54,481 nt of DNA from Moniliella sp. 'wahieum' (taxonomy: Eukaryota), in assembly GCA_003971905.1 (NCBI GenBank), contig RSEE01000068.1, forward strand, positions 62,001 to 116,481, given 5' to 3'. Below, in pieces: positions 1 to 42,679 of this stretch. Every line of letters begins with the position of its first letter. Position 1 is the first letter of the stretch. A program made the translations under genes and the position numbers. The notes beneath the pieces were generated by a model. It saw only the letters and a list, made by a program, of their open reading frames with translations. It ran no database searches and was not told where the DNA came from.

Positions 1-2636
1 ATGGGCTGGGCTCGAACCAGACCAAACTCCGTTCCTCCCAGTCTTCTTCCCAAGGTTCCAGCCAGTCCCAGAGCCTGACGGCCGGCGTGGCGTTTACCGG
101 GGCAGCGGATGAATCGGCCTGGGTGGGCCGGCTGCTGTTGGTGCTCAAGTACGGGGATGGGTTTACCAAGTCGGTCATCTTTAAGCTGGGCAACCTGGTC
201 GAACCGCTGAGCATCTGGGCGCGGTTTGTCGATGCGTGTGAAGCGTACAATGGGGGCACGATGGACGAGGACGAAGTGCGTAAGAAACAGGAGCTCAAAG
301 TGTTGCTCAAGGCGGTGGCCAAGGTGTTGGGGGAACAACCGGGGGCGGATAAAGTGGCGAGTGAATTGCTCGAGTTTGCACGGATGAATGATCTGCGTGC
401 GTACCGCCTGTTGCGGGTCAGTATGGACCCGAAACAGGACATGAAGAGTCTGCTCAAGGCGCGCTTGGAACTGCGTCGTCGCTCGAGGCCAACAACAAGT
501 CGCTCGTCCCGACCCTGATGCATTTTTGGCGCGGGGCCAGTTCTCCCGCTGGTCAACCGTACCACGGTGAGCCAGTTGCTCAAGGGCATCCAGCAAGGCC
601 CTGGCTCGTCGGCCGCGAGCCAGGCCAGTGCCGATTCCCTCTTGCCCCTCGGCCCCAACAAGGTGAGCTTGGCGGGTACGAGGTGTTTGTGGAAAACGCG
701 ACGGCCGTCTTGACCCAGGTCACCAAGTCCCACCCCCATGCTCATTCCCTTTGTGCCCGAACTGATCCGGATCGTTCGCGATGGCGAGGCCAGTGGCGAC
801 GAGAACCCGTACGCGACGACGGTGGCGCTGCGTGCGCTGGCGGTGATTGCTCGTGGGGACGACAAGCGACCAAGTTGATGCGCGAGCCCAAGGCCATCGA
901 CGCCCTCTGCCATTTCGCCCTCGAGGGCCAAGTGGAAGAAGCCAAGTTTGCCACCGAGACGCTGGCGGCGATGAGTGAGCGCGACACGTTGCTGCGGCAA
1001 GGCGAAGGTGCCGCGCGGTACACGGCGCCCGGCGGGGCGCCGCTGGCCAAATCCGATCTGCTCACCGCGCAACACGCACTGCACCACGTGCTCACTACGA
1101 TTTCCGATCAACTGAGTGTGGTACGGGAGGGCAAGTTGGCCAGTCACCTGGCTGCGCTCCTGGCTTTGGTCAAGTACGCGCCCGATGTATTTGAGGACCG
1201 GGCCCAGTCGATCATCAAGGACGTGCTGGCCGCAATCAAGCGGCCGTGGATGGAAGTGAAGGACGAGGCTGGCGGCATGCGCGCGGTCCAAGCCGAAGAG
1301 TGGATGGAGGAGGAGGAGCAAGAGGAGTGGGTCGAAGCGGAGGATGTGGACGACAATACGCGGTCGCGCATGCTGGGCTTGCGGGTGATCACCAAGCGGG
1401 CCGAGGTGTATGCGCATACCGAGCACGCCGAGATGACCGTCAAGCCCATCTGCGGTTTTTGTACCATGCCCTGGGCGCCGGCGAAGTGGATAGCGCCACG
1501 GGCGAGCCCAAGAAACCGAATGCGTTGCCTGCCATGCCGGGCCACGCGCGCGCCTGGCTGCGCTTCACGTCCGGCCGCCTGCCTGCTCAAGTTGGCGCGC
1601 CACAAGGCGTATGCGATGCTGGTGACGCGCCAAATGCTGCCGTTGGCATTTGTGGTGCAAGACCGAAGCTTTGGGGTGCGCAACCTGTTCTTGCGCAAGC
1701 TGTGCGCCTACCTCTCGTGCAACAAACTGCCCCCGGCGTTTTATGCGGTCCCTTTCCTGGTCGCGTTGGACCCCGAAGAGGAAAACTTGCATCTGGTGCG
1801 CTACTTTTTGCGCAAAGTCATCTGGGGCGTCTCGACCGCCCAACGGTTCAAGACGGTGGAATACACCTTTGCTCGCTTCCTCCACCTGCTTGCGCACCAC
1901 CCCGACTTTCACCGGGAGGACGTGACGGAAGCGCTGTTTGCTCGCTATGTCGACTTTTACCTGACCAGCGTGGCCAACGAGGAGAACATCAATTTGTTCT
2001 GGTACATGTGCAGCCGGCTCAAGACGCTTCGTGCGGCAGACAGCGTAGGCGCAAGTGAGAACTTGTATGCGCTGTGTGAGCTGGCGCAGCTGCGGATCAA
2101 GCGCAAGGCGCTGTCCAATGGCTGGACCATTGAACCCTGGCCGGGCAAGGTGGCGATGCCCTCAGACATTTTCCGTCCCTTGCCCAACAAGGAAGTGCAG
2201 AAGGAAATTTACTCGCGGCAGTACTTGCCCGATGAGGTGGTGCGGCGGCTGACAGAGGACTTGGACCAAGTCTCCAGCCGCAAACGACCGCCAGCCGAAA
2301 AAGTGATTGACATTCCCAAACCAACCAAGACGTCCCGCGCGCCTCGCGCTCGCCAGCCCAGCCCCACCGACGATTCCGACGAGGAGATGCAAGAAGCGCA
2401 AGAGCAGGCGGAGACCACACCCAAGCCCACGCGGGCGCGGCCTAAGCCTAGGGCGGCCAAGGCCACGGCCTCGCGCGCGGTCGGCGCTGCGGACGAGAGT
2501 TCCGAGGACAACGAGGAAGAGGAACAGGAGGAGGAAGATGAGGGGGGAAGAAGAGGAAGAAGAGGAAGAAGAGGAGGCGGAGAAGGAAAGCAGTCCGCCT
2601 CCTGCGAAGCGCGCGCGTCGGGCTGGGCGCCGTTGA
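1..2636 (+). CDS. PDS5: Sister chromatid cohesion protein Pds5 (HEAT-repeat), C-terminal part; 5' end outside window; frameshifted
   Basis: Pds5-typical C-terminal segments: 'CLLKLAR...LAFVVQDRSFGVRNLFLRKL', 'PFLVALDPEEE', 'FARFLHLLAHHPDF', 'SENLYALCELAQ', 'WPGKVAMPSDIFRPLP'. Acidic/basic tail 'EEEEAEKESSPPPAKRARRAGRR*' ends at 2636. Confidence 0.9.
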
Positions 2637-2864
2637 ACGTTGAACCGAGAACCGATCTGATCTACGTTTGGGGTCTATGCGTCTATGAACCTGGTGGGTG
2701 TCCTTGACTCGGCCGAGGAGCGCTTTTAGTTGATACAATAATGAACCCGTTTTAAGCAAACAAGAAAGAAAGGCTACAGACCCTGCGCGTAGCCGACACG
2801 CGCCATCCCACAGACAGACGCGCCATGCCGTGCCATCCACTCCACCCCAGGCCAGGCGAACTGA

Positions 2865-3929
2865 TTAACCACTACTCAGGCGGCGGGCGTCGGCATACGA
2901 GCCTATCCGACTGGCTAGTCGACTGAGGAAGAGGTACGCCACCACCGCAGCGGCAAAGGCGACTTTGCGCTGGCCTAGACTGAACAAGGTGCCGAACATG
3001 CCCCGTGGGGGCCGCGCATTCGGCATCTCGTTGACCTTGCCTCCCCGGTTGGCTTTCCGGTTGGCTCGCCGCGCCGCCGGCCCCGTCAGAGCCGCTCTTC
3101 CGGCGCGGGGGGGGGAGCACGGTGACGGAATCTCCGCGCGGTGGACCGAGTCGGGACAGGAGCAGTGGCAGGATCAAGAGAGGCAGGTGGGTCGGGGGCG
3201 CTGGACGGGGGTGGGGCGGGCCGCTGGCCCATGTTGGGCAGGGGGGTGGCAGTCGCATGCGCGTACTCGGGAAAGAGCGCAACAAATTTCCGTTGCTTGA
3301 TGTTCCAGGCGTGGGAGGCCTGTGCGTACGCCCTCCGATCCGCAGCGCTCGCCGATACACTTCCGGTCGTCATCTCCTCGCCCGTCATGAACGACAGCAG
3401 GCCCACGAGACTAGCCCCGCGTTCATCGTGTCAGTCGGGTCAGTCGGGCGTGCCACCGTGCGCGGCAAGCAGGGGGAAGGGACGTACATGTTGGCCACAC
3501 TCCAGCTGGGGTTCCAGCTGCCAGGATGAAAGTCGCTCATCGAGGTGCAGATCTTGGTGTTGGGACTGAAACGGCCACTGGGCGTCTGCACCTTGATGCC
3601 CCTGGACACCGGCCAGGCGGGGGTCAGCAAGGCGTCGCGAGCAAGGGACCCGGGGAGGAGACGTACGGAGGCTTGAACGGGTAGTCGCTCGGGAAGAGGA
3701 GTTGGCCCCAGTACTCTCCCCCGTCATAAGGGGTGTCGGGGGGGCCACGGAGGAAAAGTGCCACTCGAGCACGTTGTCTTCGCGCGGCCGGGCATAGCAG
3801 TAGGGCGGCGCATCGGCTTCCATGTTGATGGCCTCCTTTGCGAGCTGGGGGACGGAACAGCGTCAGCAGAGCAAGGGGCGCAGGGCGGGATGGACAACAT
3901 ACGCGCTTGGCAGCGGCTTTGCTGGCCAT
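2865..3929 (-). CDS. UBC6: Ubiquitin-conjugating enzyme E2, Ubc6/UBE2J2 type, C-terminal membrane anchor; about 3 introns
   Basis: 'MASKAAAKR', '[18 protein letters not shown]', '[27 protein letters not shown]', '[31 protein letters not shown]' (catalytic Cys), '[15 protein letters not shown]', hydrophobic tail '[16 protein letters not shown]'. Confidence 0.93.
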
Positions 3930-4876
3930 GGTGGCGGGGAGCACGGGCGATGGCGGTGGCGGCTCGGCGGCGATGGTGGTGGATTGAGCTGATCTGGCCC
4001 GCCAATCGCAGCGCCTCAGCGCCAGCCGCATGCAACTTTCAGAATGCGCTTCAATGTTGCAAGTAGCACGTGCAGTGTTGAAACGTTCAACGTCCAAACG
4101 TTCCACGCGCCACTCACTCGGTGGCGGCGCTGACCTCATCGACCTCCGCTCTCCGAAAGCTATTTATACTCAACTAGTAACACTATGTGCGGCCCGCCCT
4201 GTACGCGCCCTTTTTCGGCGCTTCGCTAGAGAAGCAAGCCCCGAAAATACTCGGTGCGTACCCACGCCCAAGTCAACCCATCTCCGATTATCGCGTCGAC
4301 CTGTAGCGCCCCGGTCAGATTGATATCAACGGTTTATCGCGCTCAACTGAGCGTTTTGATATCCGCTGCGCACTGTCCCCTGCTGAATTGCTCAGCCCCC
4401 AAGAAATCGTGCCAACAAAAACACATTGTGGAGGTAGTAGGGCACTTGAAATACTGATCGAACTGATCTCTGGTATGCGCGCCTCTATTCTCGGCGCCAT
4501 GCAGTAGGGAGACGAGCAACATCAGCAGGGCGTGTCTATTTTCGGCCGCCAAACCCCAATCTCGGCCCTGGGGCAATCTCGGTCTTTGCGGTATTGGCAC
4601 TCACTGTGGGGGGTTAGATTAATTGCAGTAGCTCCAACGAAGCACATGCACACTGCAATCCAATCCACGCTGCGTGTTTGATGGTGCTCCGTGCGTCCCC
4701 TTGCCCCAACAGCACACGCCACAAAGGTTTATAAACGAGACCCTCTTCTGGGGCATACGCCCAATAATCTCTTTCCTTCCAGCTGCATTCGCCTCTCGCC
4801 TCTTTTCGTCTGCACAACCCAACCCGAACAACAACACCATGTTTCATGCTGGCTTCAAGGAAAAGATGAATCCAGG

Positions 4877-6038
4877 ATGGGTTCCGCCAACCCTTACTCG
4901 GATTATCACGAGCCCACAGCTTCCTCCTCCTCGGACGAAGACGAAGTTGGCTTCCCGCACGATACGAAGGCGCGCCCTTCTTCGCCTTCTGGGGCATCGC
5001 GCAAGCGATCAGCATACACAAGTACGAGTGGGAGTGCGAGTCCTCCCGAGTACGCTCGTCATGACCCCTTGTTGGGGGTAGTGCCTCGGCCTCGGCCGCC
5101 CCAGCCCGGCGGGGCCAGTCCTCGTTCGCGGGCTCAACGGCCCCCTGGCAAAGTCCCTGCCGGCCGCACCGACGCTCGCTAGGCCTCTTCCCCTCCTGGG
5201 CCCAGCACAACACGCAGCAAACGTTCAAGCTTACTTGTCCGCCTGCGTTTTCCTCCAAGGTATTTGCCACGGACGTGCGGAGCGGGGTGACGCTGTTTCA
5301 GTGGAAGAGCCTGGCACGGCAGTTGCTCTCGGGCTTTCGTCCGTCAGCCTTTTTGGTGGAGAATGCGCGGACGAACGAGCCGCTGCTGGAGGTGCAGCAC
5401 GACATGGCCTCGGGCAATGGCGAGTGGATCCTTTCGCGTCCGACAGGCAGGATGGGCCAAGGTCAAGGCCAAGGGCCAGTAGGCGAGGTGCTCTGCACCG
5501 TCTCCTCCTCGGTTGGGGATGGGTACGGATCGACGATGCAGATGGACGTGTGCTTTGCCAATTCGGCGGGGCATGGAGCGGAAATGCAGTTGGTGCTTGT
5601 CTATGACCCTATGGAGGCGCGATGGGACTTGCTCGACATGGACGGCACCGTGCTGGGGCAAGTGAGTGGAGCAACAGGGCCAGTTTGCCCAACGAAGCAG
5701 TGGTGACCAGTACGTTCCGTTTTCTCTCTCTCTCTTTCTCTTCGGTCCGAGACTGACCACGTGGATCCACCTCAGTACCAGCCTATGCCGATACACTCTT
5801 CCTTGTCGTCTTGGCCATGATCACGCGCGAGGAAGACTTGATCCGTCAACAGCAACCGTCGGTACCGGCCGGTGATGGGCGGGGGCATGGGGGAGCACCG
5901 GTATGGTTCGGGTATGGGGGTGCTGGGGTACCGTGCGGGGAGGCCTGCGCGGAGCACTGCTTGGTCCGGGCCAAGCGTATGTGGGACGCAGGCGCGGCGG
6001 ATTGCTCGGTGGCGTTGTGGCTCGGGCTCGATGAGTAG
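4877..6038 (+). CDS. Hypothetical protein: Ser/Pro-rich N-terminus plus a beta-rich domain, possibly LURP-one/Tubby-C-like; ends approximate
   Basis: Protein-like frames 'MGSANPYSDY...PPEY', 'KVFATDVRSGVTLFQWK...FLVENARTNEPLLEVQHD...WDLLDMDGTVLGQV'. Intron from GTACGT (~5710) via CTGAC to CAG (~5775), then helix 'LVVLAMITREE'. The fold guess is from pattern only. Confidence 0.5.
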
Positions 6039-7045
6039 AGGCGCGGTAGTGGGGGGGCCGTTCCAGGCGCCTCTGCGCGCGCCCCTCGGTCGCATGAGGC
6101 GGAAGGGCTGTACTATTGATCGAATGATGCGCCTGAGAATCGGAGGGCCTGAGCGTGCTGCATTGGTCAGTCTCCCAAAGCGACATGACCAGCGACCTGC
6201 ACCAGGGGGGTTGTGGATCGAGGGGGTTTCTTTCTTCCCCAGCCGTTCGTATAGCCGAGCAGCAATGGACACTGAACATATGAACGCTGTGAACGTATAG
6301 TAGGCTCTTTGCTGGCGGTATTTCGCTTTGTCCTCTTAGGTAATAAGAAGGGCCGTATCTTCTTGGCGTGCATGTTGCTTCGCCCTGCCAGCGATGCCTG
6401 GCCTGGCTTTGCGCGGGCTCGGTTATCGATTATCGATCTTGTCTGCGAGCGGGCGCTCGCTGAGCACGGACATGTGACAAGGGAGATGCAATCCACGCTG
6501 GAGGAGCCGGGGCGCGGAACACCAGACGCGGAAACGCGAAAATGAGCGGAGCGGGCGGTAGGGTTGGCGCTGGCGTGGGGCGCGGCGTGGCTTGCGTGTG
6601 CGGCGGCCGTGCACGAGAAGGTTTCGCGCCGGCACGGGCGCAGTGTGGAGCGTGACCATTCTTCTGTGGCGGGCGCCGCACCACACCCCTGTCCACCTCA
6701 CCCGTCACCACCCCCCGCCGCCCGCACGGCGCCAGTGCGCGTGCGTTGGGGCCCACGCCCGCCTGTCTCAGCGGGCGCGCAGCAGGCGAGTGTCGGGCGG
6801 AATGTCACGCACGCGCGCTGCTCATGCGTCGCGTGGGCGGCAGCGTGGCAGCGTGTAGGGTTGGCCCAGGCCGCCCAGCCTGTCCACACTGCCCACACTG
6901 CCCACGCCGCCCGGCTGACGACGGACTAACCCCCTCGACACGCGACCAGCGCCTCGGCCTTTGCCCAACCCCCCCATCCATCCCACCCGACGACGACGCC
7001 CAGACCTCCAGCCTGTTGCACTGCGTCGCGCTCTCCCGCTGCGAC

Positions 7046-9548
7046 ATGGCTCCTTCGCTCGTCTCTGAGCCGCCCGGCGTCGACCCCTTTGTCCGCCGCC
7101 CCCCTGCGCGCGTCCGCGCGCTCCGCCCTCCGCCCCCGCCCGTGCCCGCGACGACACGGCCGCCGCCCAGAGCTGCGCGCCCAGTTCCCCGACCAACTGC
7201 GCCAACTCCGTGTGCCTTCCCCGACTGGTCCGATGAGACCTGCTCTTTGTCCTCGGCGATGCCGGCGGCGAGGTCGAGGCCGCCGCCGGCCTGATTGGCG
7301 ACGGCTTTGCGACCCAGTTTGCCTCGGTCAAGACCCACCCCCCCAAGAAAGAACCCCGGAGGAGCACCCTGTTCCTTCCTCCAGCCCCGCCCCTGCCTCG
7401 GTCGCGCGTGCCGGCCGGCCTGTCTCCTCGGCTGCCGGCCGGGGCGGCGGCCGGCCGGCCGCGGGGCCGTCCCCAGGGCCCCGGAACCAAGTCGAATGCC
7501 TCGTCGGATGGCAAGACGGCCGCTGCACCTGCACCTCCTGCATCTGCGCCCGCCCCCAAGCCCGCCGCGCCTAGTTGGGCCGACAGGATCAAAACGTCGC
7601 AGGCCAACAAGGCCGCTGCCGTGGCCGCCGCCCGTGCATCGCGCGCTGCGGCCCAAGCGTCCCATGAGCCCCCCAAAGCGGACGATGCCCGCAAGAGTTG
7701 CCCGCCGAAGATGCGTTCCCGCCAGTGACGAGTCGGCGCCCTCGTCTTCGTCCCCAGTTGCGCCTGCGGTGCCGCCTGCGCCGACAGGCGACGCTGCATC
7801 CAAGCCCGCTATGAGCTGGGCCCAGATCGTGACCCCCACCCCAAGCCCGCTCCCGCCGCTGCGGCCCACGAGGAGCCGAGCCCTGCCGAACCGGAACCAA
7901 CCGAGGCGACCGAATCGCACGAAACTGCACCCGCCTCCGCAGAGGTTGCGCCGGAGAACGAGACTGCCCCCGCTCCCGAGGCACAAGAAGAACCGGCCCC
8001 TGCGCTGCCCCCGAAGAACCGCGGGAGCAGATCAGGGTCTGAACCCCACCCGAACCCCTCCCTGAAGTCACTGAATCTGCTCCGGAACCTGCTTCGGAGC
8101 CCGCCCCGCGCCGGCGCCCGAACCGGAACCCGAGGCGGTGCAAGAAGAACCCCCCAAGGCATCCTCGCCTGCACCTGCACCTGTTCTGCCCCGCCCCGCT
8201 CCTGCTGCTGCTCCTGTCCTCTCTGCCCCCAGCCCCAGCGCCAGCAGCCGCTGGAGGAGCCATCAAGATCCCTGCTACGCGCAAGCAAGCCCAGCCGCTC
8301 GTCATCCCCGTGTCCCTGCGTTCGCTGGAGAGCCTGGGTGTGCAGTTTGGTTCGTTGGGGGTCGAGTCGGAGGCTGCGCCTGCGCTGGCTCCCGCTGCGC
8401 CTCCCGCCGCTGCCGCTGCACCTTCTGCCGCTGCCCTATGGATGCGAGCGCAGCTGTCGAGCCGCCGCGTGGCGCGGCGCCTCCCGGTGCGGCCTCGTTG
8501 CCGCCCAACCATTGACCGGAGCGCCGGCCATGCCGACGGCCGCGCCGGGCCTGATACCGGTTCCATCCGTCGTTTGCCAACCTCCGCATGCGGCGCAGGC
8601 CGGCGCGCCGCGGCTGCCTCAGCCCCCTCCCGTGCCCACGCCCAATGCGCCTTTGCCACGCCGCCATCCCAACGGCAGCGATGCGACGGGGCAGCCCATC
8701 CCGCCGCTGGGTTTGAGGGGTACACGGGGTACGGCTTCCCCTCGGCGCCGGCCCCGACGGCCGCCACGGCGCCGTATGGGCTGGGCCGACGCCGGGCGCC
8801 GGCCTGGCGCGGGGACCGACCCGCCGCCGCCGCCGCCGGCCCAGCAAGAGTACGGGTACCAAGGGCGCGATGCGCGCAACCTGAGCCACTTTTACGGCGC
8901 GCGTACGACCCCAGTGCGCTGCCCTGCGCGGGGAGGACAAGGCGGCTGGCGCAAGCCGGCGGCAGCCGGTGCCGGGGCGCGGTGCCGACGCCCGGACAAG
9001 CGGGCCCGCCGACGCAGCCGCCGGCGCAGCCGCAGCAGTACCCGAGATGATGCCGTACTTTACCAGCCGTTACATGCCGAACCAGTACCAGTACGGGCAG
9101 CCGGGTACATGCCGGTGTATGGGCAGGGCCAGCCGCAGGTGGGCAAGTATGCGCCGGGGCAGGGGGGCTACTACGCGACGCCGGGCACCGAGTTTGGCGC
9201 GGGCGGCGGGGCGGGCCGTCGGAGTACAGCAACAAGCTACCAGCCGGGGCTGCTGAAGCCGACGGCGCCGGCGGCGGTGGCGGGTGCGGGCAAGTCGTCG
9301 CCGGCGCTGGCGAATGCGGGGCTGGACTACCGCTTTGACCAAGGCGGGTGCGGCGGGTGCGGGCGCGGGCGCGGCGGGCGCGCTGGAGCAGGGCACGCCG
9401 CGCTCGACGCCGGCAGCGCCGCGCGCGCCCAGCCGGGGCAGAGCTTCTACACTACGGCTACAACCAGACGGGCTACGGCACGTATCCCTACAACCTTCCC
9501 GCAGGGCAACGCACGCGCCTGGCGCCAGGCGAGTCTGAGTGCACGTGA
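7046..9548 (+). CDS. Def1/UBAP2L(Lingerer)-like protein: N-terminal CUE/UBA-like domain, long Pro/Ala/Glu-rich region, Tyr/Gln/Gly-rich C-terminus; heavily frameshifted
   Basis: 'ELRAQFPDQLRQLR.AFPDWSDE.LLFVLGDAGGEVEAAAGLI' (CUE-like), repeated 'SWADRIK'/'MSWAQIV' motifs, 'LGVQFGSLG', C-terminal 'MMPYFTSRYMPNQYQYGQPG'. Confidence 0.7.
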
Positions 9549-9684
9549 CATGAATCGCTTCGATCGCCTGGGGTGCGTAGTGCCTTAGGCGTTAGTATAT
9601 AGACTCCCGCACGGCGCCCGTGTGGGTGGTTGCCCACCGGCTGCCCTTCCCACCGCCACCGCCCATAGCATGCCCCCACACATA

Positions 9685-9724
9685 TAGCATCCGCAGCATG
9701 TAGCATCCGCAGCATGTAGCATCC
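9685..9724 (+). repeat. 2.5 copies of the 16-bp unit TAGCATCCGCAGCATG, followed by an ~18-nt poly-C run (9731-9748)
   Basis: Read directly: units at 9685-9700 and 9701-9716, partial unit at 9717-9724. Confidence 0.9.
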
Positions 9725-9756
9725 AGGCCACCCCCCCCCCCCCCCCCCACCTCCCC

Positions 9757-12081
9757 ATGTCCCTCGCCTCCCCCCTCAGCGCCGTGGCCGTCGCGACAAC
9801 TACCCCGTCGCCCCCCGCCCCCCCTGCGCGCCACCACCACCTCCCCGCTCTGCCCGCACCCCACTCGGCGTGCCCGCCGCCCCACTCGGCACCCTCGCCG
9901 CAACCAGAGCCAGCTGCACAACACGCGCCGGACACCCACCACGCTTCCTTGGCCCACGCCCTGGCATCCGCCCAGCTGGTCGCGCCCTCGGTGTCCTCGT
10001 GCCGGCCGTGGTGCAGCCCCGCGCTGCCCCTGCGCTGCTCACCCGCCCCCCTCGCGCCGGCCGCATCGGGAGGCGGGTGGGTGCCGAGCGTTGGGCCGTC
10101 GGTGGCGTCGGTACCGCTTAGCTTTGGTCCGGTTCCGTCGCTCGGCCCGGACCTCGCCCTCGCCCTGCCGCCCGCGGCGAGCGGGGTGGGAAGCGGGCTG
10201 CCACTGCCTGAGCCCAGTCCCGCACCTGCGTTGCTTGCTGTTGATGCGTGCTCGACGCTGGAGGGCGAGGCGCGGGCACAGGCGACGGCCATCATCCATT
10301 CCCTCGTCACTGCCGCCTGGCAGTTGGGTTGGGACCGGACTACGGTCGCCAGCCGCATCACCGAGCAACTCAATCAGCGCCTGGGCCGCTCTTGGTCGAC
10401 GATCGTCGGGCCGTCGTTTGCGTTTATGTGCGGGAGCGGCCGCACAGCTTGCTCAACGTCCGTACGTGTGCGCCTCGTTGATTTGCTTGTTGCGTGTATT
10501 GTGTGTGTGTGTCGTGCTGGGCAAGGGTTGACTGTGTACATGCGTGACTAGGGATTGGCGACTGGTGGGTGGCCGCGTGGAAGGGCGAGGTGGGCGTGGG
10601 CAAGTCGAACAATAAGGAGGTGGAGTGTACCGTGTCAAGGGATCCAGACCGAAGTGAGCAACAAGGTGATGGAGGTGGTGCGAGACTCGATGGCGCAACA
10701 AGCGTCCCTGGTCGGTGCCGAACTTACGTACTTCCTCGCACATACTCCAACGGCTTCACCACTCCTCGGGCCCGGCTGGACCTGGTACCCGAGACGAATG
10801 TCAGTCTCTACACGCAGTTCCCGTCGGCCTTCTGTTTCCGTGCGGGCGAACAGGATTGGACCGTGTGGAACGAGCGGGACGCCAGCACGCATTCCCTCGG
10901 CTCCCTCAGCACCCTTGCTTCCGGCATGGTCTTGACTGGGACGGTGTCCGTGACGTCCGTGACTTTAGTCTGTCCGGCTTGTCGGCCTCGCAGAAATCGT
11001 ACGCCACGTCGTCAGCCTCGACGACGCTGGTGCAAAAGTGCAAAACTACGTGGCGAGCTACGCGCGCAAGTGCAAGCCGGGCGGGAACGGTGCAGATTGG
11101 CTCGTCGCACATGACTGATGCGTCGTATCACAATGCGGTATTGGATGTTTCCCTCGCGGCGATCGCCGAAGCGTCGGCGACGGTGGACAAGCAACAGGCC
11201 ACCACCCTTGTCACCAACCGTCTGCGTACCCTCTTTGGTCCGGCCTGGCACGCCCACATTGCCACCGACACCTTTGTGCCGGTGAATGCGCCGGCGCTGC
11301 AGGTGCTCACCTACCGTCTGGACGACAAGTTTGTCACGCTCTGGCAAGCGCAAGCCACCGCAGTGCAGACCACCTCCGAACCCGAGACGGAATGGGAATG
11401 GAGATGGGCCACGCGCAGCCCTGCAGCACAATAACAATGGCAGCAGCCTAACGTCCACCCACCAGGCCCTGCAGCACAACAAGCCTAGCCTGCTCAAACA
11501 GGCAGCGGGAGTAGCTGGTGGAGCTGCGATGGCCGGGTTGGGGTATGGACTGTACAAGCACCATCAGCATACGACCACAACGACCAGAACCCTCCCCCCG
11601 CTCAGCCGGATCTGGATACAGTCCACCAAACCCTCAATACACCACACGCACCCAAACGGGACCCAGCACGACCAGCGTTGACGCCCCCGGCACCGTGGCC
11701 GTTGGAACGTTGGCTGCGGCGCACAACGCCATCCGGGTCGAGAATCTACGCTGGCGGCAGCCGAGCAGGCCGTGCTGCTAGAGGTGGCGGCGGAAGCGGT
11801 GGCGTGGCACTCGATGGCCGCGCGCACGTTTGCGCTCTGGCTCGAGTCGGCGCTGGACCGGACGATGAAGTGGGATGGGTGGCACGTTGTGGTGGAACGT
11901 GGCGAGTTTTGGCGCTTCGTCCTACCCGGACTACCGCGAGGCGCTGAACCGCATCCGCTTTCGCTGGGACGACAAGTACGGACGGTGTGGCAAGGCGCGC
12001 AGTCCACGGGCCAGGGCCAGGGCCGGGGTGTCGTGGACGCGCTCCGCGCACCTCGGTGACGGATACGTTTGTGTGGAGTGA
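9757..12081 (+). CDS. Protein with about four tandem dynein light chain (LC8)-like domains (paralogue A); intron 10462-10551; frameshifted
   Basis: Repeated helix-helix-'G..W.h.h.G'-beta pattern of LC8: 'VASRITEQLNQRLGRSWSTIVGPSF...IGDWWVAAWK'; 'VSNKVMEVVRDSM...LLGPGW...FRAGEQDWTVWN'; 'VQIGSSHMTDASYHNAVLDVSLAAI...VTNRLRTLFGPAWHAHIA...LTYRLDDKFVTLWQA'; 'LLEVAAEAV...WLESALDRTMKWDGWHVVV...FRWDDKYGRVWQ'. Confidence 0.65.
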
Positions 12082-13316
12082 GCAGGTGCCGAGCGGGACG
12101 GAGTGGACGGGGACGCAGAAGGGGAACTTGCTCCTCCCCCGCTCTGGTGTAGGTTCGGTTGCGGCTCGGTGTGGGGCTCCGGTTCAGCTGGATCAGAATC
12201 GGGATCGGGATCGGTTAGCTCGTCCGACTTAGCGTCCTCGTCCAACTTTACAGCTTCCACCTGGTGGTCAAGTTGTAGTCTGTCTCTATCCTCCGAGTCA
12301 TGCACGATGCGCTTTGCGTCATCTCGAGGAAACAAATGTCCCTCTCTCTCTCTCTCTTCTTCGCCCACGTCCAAATCATCTATAGCACCACAGCTTTTCT
12401 CCAAGTTCCTCTGCCCTGCCCCGATTTGTCATCATTCCTGGGCCACAATAGGGCGAATACATTGGTCAACTTGACAGCTTTTCCACACTGGTCTTCCTGG
12501 TCGCTTTGTTATCATCTCTCATTTCCCTCCAGGGCCGAGAAGAGGTAGCAATAGACGTGTTGGTACAAAACGCCATATGACGGTGTAGGTATAATCCTCG
12601 ATGGTTATTGTACTGACAGACGGAGAGTAAGGCAGGCCGGGACAGGCAGTGTGAACAGGCACGTGTCTCCTCCCCAACACTCTCAGTGTTCTCTGTATGA
12701 TTTAGGGGGCTGGGTGGTGTGTGCGCTGCGGATGGCCTCTCGGGAGGGGTCGAACACAGCACCGGTAGGGCAAGGCTTCTCTGCGCTCAATCGCTGGCCT
12801 TGTGCGAGCAAATGTGCGATCCAAGAGGGGAGATGGGATGCGATCTATTCCAAGCGGTGGGGGTCATGAATATATCAGTACTCCGTGGGCGGAGCGCAGA
12901 CTGGGCCCGTGCCCGCCAGACGCCCAGCGAGGCCGCCCACCGCACGGTTGTTTCTCGGCACATGTGGAGTGTGCTGGGGTGCCTGGGTGGCGCAGTGCTC
13001 CCACCAAGGAGAACCGAAGAGCGGCTGACGTGCTGCCGTGCCAGCCGTGCGCTTTGGCTTCGCTTGGCCCCTCGTGCTCTCTGCCGAACGATCCCTTAGG
13101 CCGTACCCCCCCCCACCGCCAGCATACTAGCCTGCCCTTCCCCACCGGAAGATGGAAGCTTAAGCACACACACATCCTCTGGCCCCCAGCCCCTCTCTCT
13201 CACCCCCAGCCCATCTCTACATCGCCTATCCGTTTTGCGCATGCGGGATTAGTAGCTGCTGTGCGTCGTGCGCTCTTCTTGCTCCGTCGCTCGCACCCAA
13301 TGCGTAATAAAGTGTC

Positions 13317-13323
13317 TATATAA
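13317..13323 (+). promoter_or_regulatory. TATA box of paralogue B
   Basis: TATATAA ~140 bp upstream of ATG 13463, followed by a pyrimidine-rich leader in GC-rich DNA. Confidence 0.5.
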
Positions 13324-13462
13324 GCCAAAGCACAAGCCTGTTCCCGCCCCCCACCCCTTTCCCGCAGCCCTTTCCCCCCCCTTCTTCCACCGTTGCAAGC
13401 GTGACCACTCGCGTCCTACCACCGCGCACGTCCCATCTACTACCCCTCTCGCCACCATTATC

Positions 13463-15478
13463 ATGTCCTCCTCGCTTTCATCTTCGCTGTCCATCACCGT
13501 GTCCACCGTCGAGTCGACGGTGCAGGAATCGCTGACGTCGCTCGTGACCGCCGCGCTAGCGCGGCTGAATGGCGCGCCGCTGCTGGAGCGCACGCGTGCC
13601 GAGCTGGCGCGGTACATTATCGCTACCCGCCGAAGCGCGCCACGGACTGTTTTGGCACTTCGTCATGGGCAGTGACTGGGTGTACGCGTCTCACGAGAGC
13701 GAATGCGACTGGGGCACGGTTGGAAGGCGTGCTGGAGTACCAAGGCGAACCGATCAAGTTACCCTGTGGCAAACCAAGTGGACCGGCGCGGCGGGCACAG
13801 GGGTGCCGGGTCCACCCAGTTCACCGCCTCGACCCTCCCGGGCCCGATCCAGTCCCGCCTCGTGTCCTGATCCAACAGCTGTACAGCCTGCATGGCGCCC
13901 AGGCCGCTGCTCTCGCCCCCGTCTTTCTCGCCGACAACCTCAATGCCAGTTTCGGTTCGGGCTGGGTCGTCGTCGTCGGCACAGCAGCGGCGTCGTTGCC
14001 GAGCAGCGTGTATGCCACGTTCGTACTTTTTCTTCATTCCGTTTCATTTCTTTGGTGTCTTCCTGCCTTACGCCAACCTTGGCATACACTGACCTCGTTT
14101 GCACCCTATCGACGCTCCCACAGAGATTGGCAAGGACGTGTTCACGCTATGGAAAGCCCCGGGCGGGAGCCAGGAGGAAGAGACTTCGGTGTACCTGACT
14201 GGGACGCGCTTTGTCCGCCACCACCCATCCCTTCTCCTAGCTCCATCCGACCCCTCGCAGTATCGACGTGGTCGTACCCTCGGTCCAGCCGTGCCGCAGC
14301 TGGGTCCCCAGCCGGTGGCTCCGTCTGTTTCTACAACGTCTGTGGAAGTGCAGCAGGTTCCCCAGGTGGTCTCCAGCCTGCTTCAGCCTGCACCTCAGCC
14401 TTCTTCCAGCCCAGTCCGCAGCCTGCCCCGCAGCCATCTTCCACCCGGCTCCCGCTCCGCAGCCGGCGCCTGAGCTCACCACCCAGGTGTCAGATCTCCC
14501 AGCCCGTTCCGCAGCCTGCGCCACGGTCTATCCCGCAGCAGCTTGCGCCGCAATCCAGTTCTCAAACGTTCGTGGGGGTGCCTGCGACGCTGGCCTCCTC
14601 CCGCGGTTCCGACGACGCAGACGCAGCAGTCCGAATGGTCCGAGCTGCACACTTCGATCCAACACTCGCTGGTTGCGCCCGAGGCGTCGGTGGACAAGCT
14701 GCGTTCGTCGATCGTGATTGAGCGTACGACGCTCGCTGCGTCCGAGCAGAGCCAAGTGATCAACCTTGTGATTGCCACCTTGCTCCAGCACATCTCTGCG
14801 GCAAGACCACGTCGCCTGCGGACTTGGCGGTGCTGAAGCAAACGCTTTCGACGCAGCTGGATGGATGGCAAGTGCTTGTCGGCCCTACGGCTCGCACTCC
14901 GTAGCGATGCCAAGAACTTCTGGCGTTCTGTACGTTTTTCCCATACTCTTTTCTGCTTGCTATGCGCCCCCGTATTGACTCTGTGTGGGCAGCCATCGCG
15001 GCTACTACCTCGCGCTTGTCCGCCCCTCGCGGAGCACCATCAAGGTGTCTCTCACGACGACGACCGTGGGCGAGAAGGCTGTGGAGCAGGTGGGCATTGT
15101 GGAGCAGGCGGTGGATGGACAACCGTCGGGCCAAGTCAAGGTGGTTGCCTCGGACTGGAAGACGGCGAACGACCAGGTGTCGCGCGCCTGTACGGCATCA
15201 TTGGCGGCGCGCTCTTGTCGCACAACAGCACCTGCTTGCCCTGGACGAGCTGGCGCACTACCTGGGCCAGCGGCCAGTGCCGCGCTCGGCGCTGGCTGGA
15301 CGCACAGGTCTCGGAGCAGCCGTTTGCCCCGACCATAGCCTCGGTGTTGGGCGCGAGCTATGTTGTGGTCGGCGCAGGTGGGGGGCAAGACGTTGCATGT
15401 GGTGCTGTACATTCGGCGCCCGCCCCATCTGTGAAAGGGCGTGTTTGGGCGGTTGGATCCATGGGTGTCTACACATGA
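13463..15478 (+). CDS. Protein with about four tandem LC8-like domains and a central Gln/Pro/Ser-rich linker (paralogue B); introns ~14023-14123 and 14930-14992; frameshifted
   Basis: 'VQESLTSLVTAAL...ELARYII...EARHGLFWHFVMGSDW...VTLWQT'; 'FLADNLNASFGSGWVVVVG...IGKDVFTLWKA'; 'IERTTLAASEQSQVINLVIATL...LKQTLSTQLDGWQVLVG'; 'VKVVASDW...LDELAHYLGQ.ASAALGAGW'. Confidence 0.6.
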
Positions 15479-15945: not shown

Positions 15946-17264
15946 ATGGCCGACGACCGCCCCTTGTCGTCGACAACGGCACCGGCTTCGTCAAGGCTGG
16001 CTATGCCGGCAGCAACTTCCCCGCCCACATCTTCCCCTCCATTGTCGCCGCCCCATCCTGCGGTGTCGAGGAGCGCGACCACGTCGATTCGAGATCAAGG
16101 ACATCATGGTGGGCGACGAGGCCGCCGCCGTGCGCAACTATCTCCAGGTCTCCCAGCCGATGGAGCATGGTGTGGTCAAGGACTTTGCCGACATGCGCCA
16201 TGTGTGGAACTACACCTTTGACGAGAAACTCAAGGTCGACCCCCAGGGCCGCAAGATCCTTCTGACCGAACCCCCGATGAACCCCAAGCGCAACGCGAGG
16301 AGATGTGCCAGATCATGTTTGAAGAGTATGGGTTTGACGGCGTGTATGTGGCGATCCAGGCAGTGCTCACCCTCTATGCCCAGGGGCTGCAGACCGGCGT
16401 CGTCGTCGACTCGGGCGACGGCGTAACCCACGTGGTACCCGTGTACGAAGGGTTGCTCTTCCCCACCTCACTCGCCGTCTGGATGTGGCCGGACGCGATG
16501 TGACACGCTACCTCATCAAGCTGTTGCTGATGATGCGAGGCTATGCCTTTAACCGCACGGCCGACTTTGAGACTGTGCGCGAGATCAAGGAAAAGCTGAG
16601 CTACGTCAGGTGAGTCCCCCCCCCCTCACCTCTATTCTTCTCCTGCACACCCTCCTGACCCTTCTCACCAGTTACGACATTGCCATGGACAAGAAACTGG
16701 CTGAGGAGACGAAACACTGGTGGAGCAATACGAAGTAAGTAATGTGGCCCTTTCCCCTTTCCCCGCTCCCTTCTCTCGTAGCCAGAGCCCTTAATCGCTA
16801 ACGATATATTCTCTCTTCAGTTGCCCGATGGCCGCATTATCAAGGTTGGTTCCGAGCGCTTTGAGGCACCGGAATGCTTGTTCCAGCCCGAGCTGGTCGA
16901 TGTGGAGCAGCCAGGGATGGGAGAGCTGTTGTTTAACACAATCCAAGCTGCTGCTGGACACGCGTGCTGAACTGTACAAGCACATTGTGCTTTCCGGTGG
17001 TTCGTCCATGTACCCTGGTCTGCCCAGCCGTCTGGAAAGAGAGATGAAACAACTCTACCTCACGGCGTCTTGCATGGCGACGCTTCCCGTCTGCCTGGCT
17101 TCAAAATCCGGATCGAGGACCCACCGCGTCGCAAGCACATGGTGTTTCTTGGTGGTGCGGTGCTGGCCGACATTATGAAGAACCGCGAGTCGTTCTGGGT
17201 CAGCCGGCAGGAGTGGTACGAAAAGGGTCCTGCGGCGCTGGACAAGCTAGGCCGTGACGCTTAA
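15946..17264 (+). CDS. ARP2: Actin-related protein 2 (Arp2/3 complex); 2 introns (~16610-16670, ~16735-16820)
   Basis: '[17 protein letters not shown]', '[10 protein letters not shown]', '[14 protein letters not shown]', '[34 protein letters not shown]', '[21 protein letters not shown]', '[19 protein letters not shown]'. Confidence 0.97.
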
Positions 17265-26840: not shown

Positions 26841-27912
26841 TCAATCCACTCGGATGTAGCGCTCGCCTTCAGTCGTAAACGTCGCGAGGACACTTTCGAT
26901 TTCCGCCAGATCCTCCTTCGAGAGGGTAATGGTCGCGGCGGCTACATTCTCGTCAATGTGCTTGATGTTGGTCGAACCGGGGATGGGCAACACATCCTCT
27001 CCTGCGCAAACAGCCAGGCAAGCGCCACCTGTCCGGCGTGTACCCTAACTTGTCTGCAATCTGTAAGTAGAAAAAAAACGTCAGTTCTTGCTCTTCGTCG
27101 GTGTGGAAGGGGCGGGAGGTGGGAGGGAAAGGGGGTCGGGGCGGGTACGCACAGCCTTGACCTTGTTGACCAGAACCAAGTTCTTGGGGAAGTTCTCCTC
27201 GCTAAAGCGGGTTGGTTGGAAAGACGGAAGTCGTCAGGCGTAAAGTCCGCGCGGGACTTGATCTGACCCGTGAGGAAGCCACGTCCCAAGGGCGAGTAAG
27301 CAACAATTGCCGTGCCGTTCTTCTTGGCCCAGTCGTAGATGCCATTGGTGAAAATGTTGGGCGTAAACAGACTAGCTTCGACTGAAGCGCATCAATGTGA
27401 ACGATCTTTTCGGCGCGTTCCAGCTGCTCCAGCGAGTACTCCGAAACACCCACGTACTTAGTCTTGCCGGCCTCCTTGAGCGCCTTCAAGCCCTCAAGCG
27501 TGGGCTCATCGGCTCCACCGCCCGGTGGGCATAGTACAGATCGACGTGATCCGTGTTGAGCTTGAGCGACTTTTCGAGGGCCTGGAGCGTGTACTCGGTT
27601 GAGGGCGTAGTGATGCCCCTTTCCCCCGTTTCGGAGATGGAGAAGATATGCTTGGTAGCGAGGAAAAACGAGTCACGCGCCTGGATGCGCTGGAAAAAGG
27701 AGCCAATCTGTTCTTCGTTTTCTCCCAGCGAAGGACGCGTGCTGTAGATGTCGTGGTATCAATGTGGGTTACCCCTGCTTGATGAGATGGGCCAGGACAG
27801 CGTCGACTTCGGGCTGGGTTTTGGGCGCGCCGTAGAAGGCGGCGAGGGACATCAACCCGGCACCCAGGTTGGACACGGACGTTGTGCCGATCTTGCGTTG
27901 CGGAAGAGGCAT
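26841..27912 (-). CDS. Aldo-keto reductase, YakC/AKR13 (pyridoxal-reductase-like) type; at least one intron (~27062-27155)
   Basis: 'MPLPQRKIG', 'FFLATK', 'DHVDLYYAH', '[14 protein letters not shown]', '[14 protein letters not shown]', 'GQVALAWL', '[14 protein letters not shown]'. Confidence 0.88.
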
Positions 27913-29500: not shown

Positions 29501-30542
29501 TTAATCCAGCTTGGACTGGGCCTTGTCGTTGTACTCGGGGTGCTTGTCCTCAAAAATGTCATAGTTGCAGTCGTCCGACTGGTCACACACGCGTGGGCGG
29601 GTGCGCGTTGGCGGCCGCCTCGATCGCGTCGAATTCGGCCTTGGTGAGGGTAATGTAGGCCATGTTGGACTCGATGCGGGACGGGGTGACACTCTTGGGC
29701 AAAACCACCAGGCCGCGGCTCAGGAGCCAGGAAATGACGACCGTAGCAGGCGGCACGCCGCGTGCCTTGGCCACCTCCTCAATCGCCGGCGACGAGTTGT
29801 ACTTGGCACCGGTCGAGCCAAGCGGCGAGTAGGCCTCGACGACAATGTCGTGGCGCTGCAGCCAGTCAATCAGGTCGGGTTGCGGGTTGCCAAAGTTGAC
29901 TTCGATCTGGTTGGCCACCGGCTTGATCTCGGCGTTTTGGAGAATGTAGCGCGTCTTGCGCACATTAAAGATACCAATGCTCTTGACCAAGCCCTTCTTG
30001 ACCAGCGCCTCCATCTTGCGCCACGTGGGCAGAGGGTCATCGGACATCTCCTTGTTGATAATGTACTTGCCCTCGCTCGTCTTCTTCTCCTCAGTGGGGA
30101 GCGAACCATCCGAGGTGGGCACCGGCTCAAAGGCAACAGGCCAGTGCACGAGGTAGAGGTCAAGGTATTCCAGTCCCAGGTCGCTGAGCGTCTTGCGCAC
30201 CGCGCCTCGGGGTCGGCGTGGTGGATCTCGTAGCACTTGCTCGTCACAAAGATCTGGTCGCGCGGCACGCCCGAGTCCTTGATGCCTTGGCCCACTTCAT
30301 TTTCGTTGCCGTAGCACCAGGCTGCGTCAATCAGCTTCTGGCCGTGGGTCAGGGCGTGGGCCACAGCCGTCTCCACCTGGCCGGGGGCACTCTTCCAGGT
30401 GCCGAGGCCCAGAGAGGGGATGGTGTTGCCGTTGGACAGCTTGTAGGAAGCAACAGGCCTACGGCAGAAGACATATCAGCATCTGGGGCACAGAAGAAAA
30501 GGGAGGGAGGAGGCGTGGGACATACTCGTGGTAGGAAACCAT
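29501..30542 (-). CDS. Aldo-keto reductase, Gcy1/Ypr1-like; intron 30459-30525
   Basis: Spliced start 'MVSYHE|PVASYKLSNGNTIPSLGLGTW', 'IDAAWCYGNENEVG', 'IFVTSK', 'LEYLDLYLVHWP', 'EAYSPLGS', 'VLPKSVTPSRIESN'. Confidence 0.92.
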
Positions 30543-40413: not shown

Positions 40414-42679
40414 TTACCACTGACCGGGGTCGGCGGGGCGCAGTTCGCGGTAGAGCGGTACCCAGGCACGGTGCCGGGCCAACTTCTCCATTTCCTCGAG
40501 CGTGTCGGGCAAGTCGTCGGCCCGAGCCAGCCCTTCCTTCTTGGCAGCCAGTGCGACGGCAGCCGAGACCTTCATGCTGACGTTGCGCATATCGGTCAGG
40601 TCGGGCAAGAGGGACGCATCCGGGTCCTTGAGCGCCGGGCTGAGCGAAGCAATCGCATCTACCCCGGCGACAATCATGCTGTCGGTCAAGTGCTTTGCCT
40701 TGGCCAAGATCACGCCGCCGCCCAAGCCAGGGAAGCCAAGGGCATTGTTCGATTCGGCCACCGTGTACATCTTGTTCGAGTTGGGGATGGGCACGGGGGG
40801 GAAGGGGGAGCCGGTAGCGATCAAGGCACGACCATGCGACCATTCGTGATCTCGTCCGGCCGGGCTTCGGAGAGACGGGACGGGTTGGAGAGGCGGTAGG
40901 ATGGCGGGGCGCTCGCAGTGCGCCGACATTTCCCGCACCACAGCCTCGGTGAACGCCCCCCCCTGGCCCGATACGCCAATCAGAACAGTAGGTTTCACTT
41001 GCTTGACCACTTCCAGCAGGGGGAACCCATGCCCCTCTTTGGGCGCGGGCCAGTTGGCCACCTCTTCCTTCTCTCGGGCAAAGGGACTTGCGCTTCGCGC
41101 AGCTCAACCTCGCCCTTGACCAGCAACCCTTCCCGGTCGATGAGCCACAGCCGCTTGGCAGCCTCTTCCTTACTCAGACCCTGGCGGATGGAAATGGCAT
41201 CACGAATTTGGGCTGCAATGCCGAGGCCGGCAGTGCCCGCGCCAAAGATAATGTACCGCTGGTCCTTAAGCGTCGACTTGGTCACCTTGACCGCCGACAA
41301 GACCGCAGCCAGCGTCACAGCCGCTGTGCCCTGGAGAAAACGAAAACAGGTGAGTCTGGGTTCAGGGGATGGGAATGGGAATGGGTAAGGGGACGTGGCC
41401 AGTTCCAACATACCTGCTCGTCATCCCAAAAGACATTGTACTGCGGCCGGTACTTGAGCAGCAGACGGTGGGCATTTTGGGTTCCAAAGTCCTCGTAGTG
41501 AAGCAACGCGTTGGGGAAGCAGGTGCTGGCTACGCTAGTGTAATCGTCCATAAAGGCATCGTACTCGGCACCACGCAGCCGAGGGTTCCGCCAGCCCAAG
41601 TACAACGGGTCGGCGAGCATGCTCGCATTGTTGGTGCCGACATCCAGGCCGATACTAAGCATGCGCTGCGGGTCAAAGCCGCCGCCGACGGCGTAGATGG
41701 TGTTCTTGCCAATGGCAATGTTAATTCCGCCAACACCTAATCGAAACGGTTAGCAGTCGTGTGGGATGGGTGCTACCAACCAAAAGAGCCGAGGAGAGAA
41801 GAAGAGAAGCGGAACACGTACCCTGGTCGCCAATGCCAGAATTCCTTCACTGTCTGTGCACGTCAGCAAATCCACATCGTCCGGTCCCAAGTGGCCGTAG
41901 TGCGTGATGGCGTCCTGGATGTACTTGCGTCCGGCGTCGCGGTCGCCACCAGAAGCGTCAATGGCAGCCTTGTACGCGGGTAGAGATGTAGGTGCCATCG
42001 GGGGGCGGAAGATGCGCGAGTAGTTGGTGATCGCAGACCCGACGACGGGGGTGTAAATGATGCGCAGGGTTTCCTTCAGGTTGCGGAACAGCAGCGCATA
42101 AAATAGAATCGCATTCTGGTCCTTCAATGAGCGCAGAAAGGTGTACTGCATAATGTCACCGTCGTCCTCATTGCCGTACTTGGCGATGCGTTGGCGCAGC
42201 TTGAGCTGGTTGTACGCCCGGTCCACCTGGGTGGACAGGGTGTGGATGCTGTGAGGCAAAAAGGGGCTGAGACCAAGCGACTCACGCTCGGCCCAACTGT
42301 GCGCGGCACCGTAGTTGCTCATCGGGTCTTCCAGCACCTCGCCCCCGCGCTTGTGGACATACAACACCGGCAGCGGCGGCGAGCCAGGCGGGTTGCTTGG
42401 GTGCACTGTGCGCTCGGACGAGGAGCCGGGGGCCCCGGCAAGCGCGTGGGGCGCCGGACGCGCACGACGCGACGGACCGTAGGGCTGCTCTTGTTTGGGC
42501 GCCGCAGCGCCTGCCTTGGTGTGCTTGGCCTCGGTCGCATAGCGACGACGATGGGCCGACGGGTCGGCAGCGGTGGTGGAGAGGGCACGCCGGGCAGCCA
42601 CGAAGACGGGAGGGGGCGCGCGGGCGGTGGTGGCCGCCGCGGCCGCGTGGACGGGGCGTGCGAGACGCGGGAGCAGCAT
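40414..42679 (-). CDS. MAE1: NAD(P)-dependent malic enzyme, mitochondrial precursor; 2 introns
   Basis: Arg/Ala-rich presequence 'MLLPRLARPV', 'IIYTPVVG', 'TDSEGILA', 'LDVGTNN...LADPLYLGWRNPRLRG', 'DDEQ|GTAAV', 'FGAGTAGLGIA', 'KPTVLIGVSG', 'ATGSPF', 'ESNNALGFPGLG'. Confidence 0.95.

Follow-up and report, generated by a model that had tools for sequence, protein, structure and literature searches.

The 54.5-kb stretch of contig RSEE01000068.1 of Moniliella sp. 'wahieum' (assembly GCA_003971905.1) analysed here, referred to as the window (G+C content 62.7%), carries on its forward strand, between positions 9757 and 12081, what is probably a real and intact nuclear gene of this GC-rich basidiomycete seen through an indel-rich draft assembly; the product of this gene (gene A) would be built from tandem, cryptic modules with the fold of the dynein light chain LC8. 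LC8 is a single-domain protein of ~89 residues, highly conserved across eukaryotes and an obligate homodimer, whose fold is completed by a strand of the partner subunit; at the interface so formed, its peptide ligands add a further strand. To our knowledge LC8 is known only as a single-domain dimer, and the tandem arrangement of cryptic LC8-fold domains is probably new.

A first-pass annotation had read the locus as a polyprotein of about four highly diverged LC8-fold domains. Both peptide strings that it quoted were recovered, VQIGSSHMTDASYHNAV...FGPAWHAHIA...LTYRLDDKFVTLWQA in frame 2 (11090-11350) and VASRITEQLNQRLGRSWSTIVGPSF in frame 1 (10345-10419), whereas no open reading frame (ORF) was found to span 9757-12081: the ATG at 9757 and the stop at 12079-81 share frame 1, yet no ORF joins them. 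The longest forward-strand ORFs are 9688-10551 (287 aa, frame 1) and 10670-11434 (254 aa, frame 2), and the LC8-like pieces are spread over all three forward frames. Reading them as four modules, D1 to D4, requires one 90-nt GT..AG intron and at least six frame changes in or adjoining the modules, with more in the linkers (frame paths in Table 1). In the reading favoured here, frequent one-base indels in the draft assembly would make the frame look shattered, and once read through, the product would have ~700-770 residues: its N-terminus would be Pro-rich and probably disordered, and behind it three or four LC8/DYNLL-fold modules, all very diverged, would be connected by low-complexity linkers, with the one intron splitting D1.

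D3 is the sole module that is intact in one frame, over 90 codons. Compared with Pfam, it had Dynein_light (PF01221) as its single match at E ≤ 10 (E = 0.1, 13.4 bits, residues 3-86 aligned to profile positions 3-84 of 86). The three nearest ESM Atlas clusters (scores 0.92, 0.91 and 0.90) shared 212-213 of 256 features with the module and carried PF01221 on 15-22% of their members, and 14 of the 30 matches fell in the PF01221-bearing set. The single-sequence AlphaFold2 model of D3 (predicted local distance difference test, pLDDT, 68.3; predicted template modelling score 0.64) displays helices at residues 16-33 and 39-54 followed by strands at 58-63, 74-82 and 85-92, the first strand and the swapped strand not being called. 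Searched against the PDB with Foldseek, this model gave 71 matches at E ≤ 0.001, the best being 4qh8_A (E = 2.4e-5); the LC8 chains superposed with template modelling (TM) scores of 0.62-0.68 normalised by the query and up to 0.75 by the target, over 85-93 columns at 10-19% identity. Among the matches listed, the single-molecule rows were all LC8, DYNLL, dynein light chain (DLC) or Dyn2, and the others were chains of dynein or axonemal complexes. The LC8 arrangement (beta-alpha-alpha-beta-beta-beta-beta, with two helices on a sheet) was assessed on the D3 model and found there. Pfam, the Atlas and modelling give good support for an LC8-like fold of D3, and the match to LC8 anticipated by the first-pass annotation was obtained for this module. 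Complex prediction with two D3 copies returned scores of 0.01 and 0.03 against a mark of 0.32, which speaks neither for nor against pairing.

For D1, the evidence comes from a 66-aa fragment in its native frame 1 (10228-10425), which matched Dynein_light at E = 4.8e-4 (20.9 bits, profile positions 13-62 of 86). In a phmmer search of the PDB with this fragment, three of the five matches were dynein light chains (E = 0.42, 0.55 and 2), and the best match (E = 0.035) was an unrelated Fn3 domain. The fragment ends at a one-base frame break in a TTT run, and the codon-usage path described below places the change at exactly 10425. The predicted intron separates the segments corresponding to LC8 strands beta4 and beta5; the flanking frames contain stops and frame 3 is kept across it. 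Beyond it, a phmmer query with the joined D1 recovered the second exon part in the native ORF, this part being a member by construction. Taken together, the sequence matches give good support to D1 as an LC8-like module.

For local tests only, the frame pieces of the broken modules were joined by script. Joined D4 then had the native D3 ORF as its best non-self match among 1377 sequences (phmmer, E = 0.0019) over the full length, and the Smith-Waterman score of 58 between D3 and the downstream codon-path translation was reached by none of 500 shuffles. A hidden Markov model (HMM) of D1, D2 and D4 likewise placed the native D3 ORF first among the non-members in the set of 1377 sequences (E = 0.0072). 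The homology of D4 to D3 is therefore well supported at the level of sequence comparison, and the LC8 support for D4 comes through D3. For D2, G+C at third codon positions (GC3) and the codon-usage path both switch from frame 1 to frame 3 inside the module, and a Smith-Waterman comparison with D3 gave a z of 5.2 (1 of 1000 shuffles), a value that is biased since the frames were chosen by the analyst; D2 is an LC8 module only tentatively, on its motif pattern and this one biased pairwise score. At the start of the interface strand of LC8, a Trp-His of the 'WHCIVG' type is conserved; the corresponding stretch reads WHAHIA in D3, WHVVVE in D4, WSTIVG in D1 and WTWY in D2, with Trp in all four modules and His in two of them. 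Of the four segments that had been said to follow the LC8 pattern, D1 and D3 are well supported and D4 is supported through D3, whereas D2 was not significant in unbiased tests. As a control, Dynein_light was matched by none of 251 translated ORFs taken from other parts of the window (E ≤ 0.01).

The frame hops most likely reflect assembly indels and not gene decay, because conserved genes of the same window, PDS5 among them, carry equal frame breaks, and the earlier suggestion that the indels should be fixed was the right instinct. When the all-frame ORF pieces of conserved window genes were scanned against Pfam, five genes (malic enzyme, Arp, MYG1 and two aldo-keto reductases, AKR) had neighbouring stretches of a single profile in different frames, too close together to accommodate an intron. 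In the malic enzyme gene, Malic_M positions 1-90 and 82-257 lie in different frames around 41064-41091 (-); in Arp, Actin positions 35-127 and 103-167 are offset by one base (16273-16348, +); in MYG1 (-), profile positions 2-24 end at 20814 and 25-88 begin at 20815; and further one-base breaks of this intron-less type lie at 30203-30215 (-) and 26880-27750 (-). A base-by-base view confirmed four of the breaks (MYG1, malic enzyme, Arp and one AKR); in Arp, one base is missing and the conserved actin motif goes on in the other frame.

A codon log-odds model was derived from 1614 codons of conserved window genes only and run as a frame-hopping Viterbi path. Over the conserved genes, this path contained six frame hops in 871 nt of AKR2, three in 911 nt of the malic enzyme gene, two in 1311 nt of PDS5, one in 821 nt of AKR1 and none in 686 nt of the PP-loop gene. 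Over 9700-12120, and with no LC8 information, it recovered the junctions drawn in the first reading, at 10425 in D1 and at 11748, ~11921 and 11979 in D4, and the GC3 plot agrees with the frames of that reading. The module junctions coincide with short homopolymer runs (TTT, CCC, TTTT, GG), which fits indel errors; this evidence is weak because such runs are common.

The same model was used to follow the coding signal along the locus. From 10228 to 12010, the score was +104 bits on the forward strand, where the signal is continuous, and -51 on the reverse strand, whereas the spacer at 12082-13462 was negative on both. A gene on the minus strand of the locus was considered and dropped on account of that negative score. 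D1 and D2 are ~35 nt apart, while the D2-D3 and D3-D4 linkers measure 200 nt and 350 nt; frame 2 contains no ATG from 10935 to the start of D3, leaving D3 with no in-frame upstream ATG of its own. On these grounds, it appears rather probable that three or four modules share one chain. In the stretch just before D3 (10969-11088, +), codon usage favours frame 1 (…VVSLDDAGAKVQNYVASYARKCKPGGN) and the translation resembles a helix pair, which could represent a remnant half-module or a structured linker.

The N-terminal region is less clear, its true start and coding status being uncertain. ATG 9757 is the sole frame-1 ATG upstream of D1, the codon log-odds are ~0 on the forward strand and negative on the reverse, the codon-usage path hops frames within the region, and Pfam returned no match besides D1. 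Directly upstream of the ATG, at 9687-9756, a ~16-nt direct tandem duplication (CATCCGCAGCATGTAG twice) is followed by a long C-rich run (~20 C) up to the start codon; the two together may be a promoter or 5' untranslated region (UTR) feature, and the run probably attracts homopolymer errors. The possibility of a secreted effector was dropped, the N-termini being, by eye, unlike signal peptides.

A second gene, implied when the locus was first labelled 'Paralogue A', was located 1.4 kb downstream, beyond the non-coding spacer. This paralogue B scored +73 on the forward strand and -40 on the reverse and contains the strings FWHFVMGSDWVYASHESE, FGSGWVVVVG...IGKDVFTLWKAPGG and IVIERTTLAASEQ, the last of which resembles AIRVE..TLAAAEQ of D4. 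Two introns with GTAC donors are predicted in it (~14023-14125 and 14932-14993), at the same beta4/beta5 place as the D1 intron, and it was the best non-member match of the four-module HMM (E = 0.03). Pfam scans of 12 paralogue B pieces gave no match, a 25-aa piece compared with the PDB by phmmer gave nothing, and tblastn of eight pieces against the window returned no paralogue at E < 0.09. The sequence link of A to B is statistically weak.

Both genes also contain the tripeptide TQT, the anchor of LC8-binding motifs. In gene A, it stands in frame 1 at 11650-11658, 25 residues before the start of D4, and in paralogue B in frame 2 at 14615-14623, 30 residues before the third module, so that in both paralogues an in-frame TQT precedes an 'IRVE/IVIE' module by 25-30 residues. 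This coincidence was seen post hoc, and the six frames of the whole window contain 17 TQT; a role of the linker TQT as an LC8-type ligand is consequently put forward as a lead only.

A number of results weigh against tandem LC8-like modules at this locus. Neither D1 (20.9 bits) nor D3 (13.4 bits) reaches the Pfam gathering cut-off for Dynein_light, 29.1 bits, and the modules are for this reason termed LC8-fold or LC8-like rather than certified family members; the Pfam scans of the D2 pieces (D2N, D2C) and D4 pieces (D4N, D4M) gave no match, D1, D2 and D4 having been scanned as frame-broken fragments, which lowers Pfam scores. The D3 model was computed from one sequence, and the other four models reached a pLDDT of 45.8-52.2. 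Relatedness among the modules was faint in several tests: D2 against the D3 ORF was full length and collinear and not significant (phmmer, E = 0.28); in a frameshift-aware comparison of D3 with the whole window, D4 was the best non-self match at 49, with a background of 44 and a reversed null of 43, and D2, at 37, was noise; averaged-profile leave-out scans of the same kind placed no left-out module above the reversed-sequence null; leave-one-out HMMs missed D1, D2 and D4 in turn; the pairs D1-D4 and D2-D4 had no similarity; and blastp of the codon-path translation of gene A with itself gave no off-diagonal match that would mark an internal repeat. The Atlas query with the frame-3 reading of D4 reached a best score of 0.87 and no family, and the best blastp match between A and B had an E of 0.57. 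The break density in the modules, ~5 per 1.1 kb, exceeds the conserved-gene mean of 12 in 4.6 kb, and frame 2, in which D3 is read, meets a TAA after the module at 11432-34.

Protein searches count on the same side. An exhaustive search with D3 (11027-11431, 135 aa) against 1.84 billion representative proteins found no true homologue, and word-indexed protein searches yielded no match from 6805 candidates for the frame-1 N-terminal part and none from one candidate for the D1 fragment. The single match of the exhaustive search (E = 2.3e-5), a 1005-aa protein with about ten near-identical repeats, was rejected as a summed-repeat artefact, and the designed WD40 repeats matching 'DDKFVTLW' and the ribosomal L13 returned by phmmer against the PDB for 11027-11431 were rejected for the same reason. 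For comparison, the best species-named relative of the malic enzyme fragment was Tilletiaria anomala, at 58% identity, with two other records at 80% and 68%. The database contains no close annotated relative, so that, for a domain that evolves fast, a search without homologues carries little information.

Three other explanations of the locus were weighed. If A and B were a decaying array, relics of duplicated LC8-like genes, some of the frameshifts and stops would be real. The excess of breaks in the modules is the reason why a small share of belief is left on real decay, and the TAA after D3, the lack of a homologue in protein searches and the extreme divergence of the paralogues point the same way, as does a coding score of 0.04-0.06 per nt against 0.10-0.18 in conserved genes. 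The latter genes are, however, the training set of the codon score, which inflates their values, and the housekeeping genes of the window have breaks of the same type, with AKR2 at 6 in 871 nt. GC3 and codon bias still follow the module frames, D3 has stayed intact over its 90 codons and is predicted to fold, and the intron signals are kept, so that decay of the array is considered unlikely.

It is about as improbable that the modules belong to several separate small genes (for example D1+D2, D3 and D4), forming a cluster of single or double LC8-like proteins. Canonical LC8 is itself a single-domain protein, the frame-2 stop closes D3, and the D2-D3 and D3-D4 gaps are long, of low complexity and ambiguous in coding frame. 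Against such a cluster, those gaps of 200-350 nt are short for a 3' UTR, a promoter and a 5' UTR, D1 and D2 are only ~35 nt apart, and frame 2 has no ATG between 10935 and D3; 10228-12010 is coding overall whereas the spacer at 12082-13462 is non-coding on both strands, and paralogue B has the same multi-module layout. A chance resemblance, in which GC-rich DNA open in all frames yields an LC8-like pattern once frames may be chosen freely, is less credible than either. It would account for D2 and most A-B similarities lying at noise level in unbiased scans, and for MAFFT finding no meaningful alignment of the raw frame-wise fragments, with all Trp in one column. D3, on the other hand, is read in one frame, so that none had to be chosen, and three methods match it to LC8, D1 matches in a single native frame, the control ORFs were free of Dynein_light, and the frame path was recovered independently of LC8; for D1 and D3, chance is already contradicted.

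With a single intact gene as the preferred reading, all modules would lie on one polypeptide. Each module, like LC8, would need a partner strand, and the modules may therefore pair within or between chains to give a multivalent scaffold for dimerisation or peptide binding, in which the TQT before the last 'IRVE/IVIE' module could serve as strand ligand, bound either by these modules or by the LC8 of the cell itself. The intramolecular pseudo-dimers and the scaffold role proposed earlier are inferred from the behaviour of LC8. A stronger version would be a lineage-specific fungal family of two tandem genes in which the LC8 fold has been concatenated, neighbouring modules form covalently linked pseudo-dimers, and the linker TQT acts as a built-in ligand, which either brings about self-assembly or auto-inhibition or lets the cell's own LC8 dock; in this full form the proposal is unlikely.

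Among known proteins, LC8 itself (DYNLL1-2, yeast Dyn2) resembles D3 in helix and strand order and in superposition, and its 'G-x-x-W-H/S...' strand and final '...W-K/Q' strand recur in gene A modules, whereas gene A differs from it in its identity of 10-19%, sub-cut-off scores, three or four tandem modules and long linkers. The nematode and flatworm 'hypothetical protein' clusters of the Atlas, the nearest to D3 (0.90-0.92), are likewise cryptic LC8 relatives; they are of single-domain size (75-105 aa) and from animals, and the comparison is one of language-model features, with no alignment or E-value. The first-pass annotation knew of no such architecture in fungi, and phrase-based full-text searches of the literature, in the text retrieved, likewise returned no tandem LC8-fold protein, 'tandem LC8' there meaning tandem binding sites in client proteins. 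The trematode proteins with EF hands and a DLC domain reportedly offer a precedent for a diverged DLC-like domain within a larger lineage-specific protein unrelated to dynein (PMC12347358, PMC4300400, PMC5858670). They are reported to combine one DLC-like domain with EF hands and to be restricted to flatworms, whereas here LC8-like modules are repeated in a fungal host and the scanned pieces of gene A had no EF-hand match in Pfam.

Table 1. Predicted features of gene A and paralogue B (positions in the window)
Feature	Position	Strand	Reading
Putative Pro/Ala/Ser-rich low-complexity N-terminal region	9757..10227	+	frame-1 ORF open from 9688
D1, exon part 1	10243..10461	+	frame 1 to 10425 (ends ...GRSWSTIVGPSFAF), then frame 3, 10425-10460 (YVRERPHSLLNV)
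Predicted D1 intron, 90 nt (GTACGT...TGACTAG)	10462..10551	+	read from sequence; (GT)n run inside
D1, exon part 2 (IGDWWVAAWKGE)	10552..10595	+	frame 3; last strand of LC8-like pattern
D2 (tentative)	10630..10886	+	frame 1 (IQTEVSNKVMEVVRDSMAQQ...) to frame 3 (ETNVSLYTQFPSAFCFRAGEQDWTVWNE); break somewhere in 10743-10790
D2-D3 linker	10887..11086	+	frames 3, 2 and 1 by codon usage; possible 40-nt intron 10929-10968
D3	11087..11356	+	frame 2 throughout
D3-D4 linker	11357..11706	+	Q/N/T/H/G-rich, low complexity, ambiguous frames
D4	11707..12008	+	frame 1 (AHNAIRVE) to frame 3 (TLAAAEQ...DGWHVVVERGEF) to frame 1 (YPDYREALNRIRFRWDDKY) to frame 3 (TVWQGAQ)
3' end	12009..12081	+	stop 12057-59 if frame 3 is kept, or 12079-81 in frame 1 (end in the first-pass annotation)
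Paralogue B, about four LC8-like modules, frame-hopping	13463-15434	+	read from sequence and codon path

Of the 275 ORFs with 110 aa or more, the Pfam gene survey covered 143, over positions 1-43051. Intron-containing fungal genes of the window include those for PDS5, a ubiquitin-conjugating enzyme, Arp, Utp12, MYG1, two aldo-keto reductases, a PP-loop ATPase, a Spa2/GIT protein and malic enzyme. Upstream of gene A, 6000-9600 has 69-73% G+C, with 600-aa ORFs open on both strands and no Pfam match; within 7700-9700, a weak coding signal of +40 bits was seen on the forward strand, with a Gly/Tyr/Gln/Pro-rich reading near 9100-9550, and 6000-9600 may hold the gene of a low-complexity protein. The two aldo-keto reductase genes, 26844-27758 (-) and 29586-30475 (-), are separated by 2 kb; with as many as six hops in 871 nt, the first shows the densest hopping observed and may, in addition to carrying assembly errors, be a real pseudogene.

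In practical terms, this assembly breaks even housekeeping genes, and gene calls or 'pseudogene' labels in it are suspect before polishing. Few eukaryotic hub proteins are as conserved or as well studied as LC8. Should the reading of gene A given here be true, a whole chain of three or four cryptic modules would have been tandemly duplicated and have diverged beyond what Pfam and BLAST detect, the LC8 fold would be reusable as a repeat unit, and such proteins would hide among the 'hypothetical' genes of fungi. The gene would also be a natural test of whether strand-swapped dimers of the LC8 type can form within one chain. The concatenated pseudo-dimers, if they were true as well, would mean that the LC8 fold can be made into a multivalent hub in a novel manner, one that standard domain annotation overlooks.

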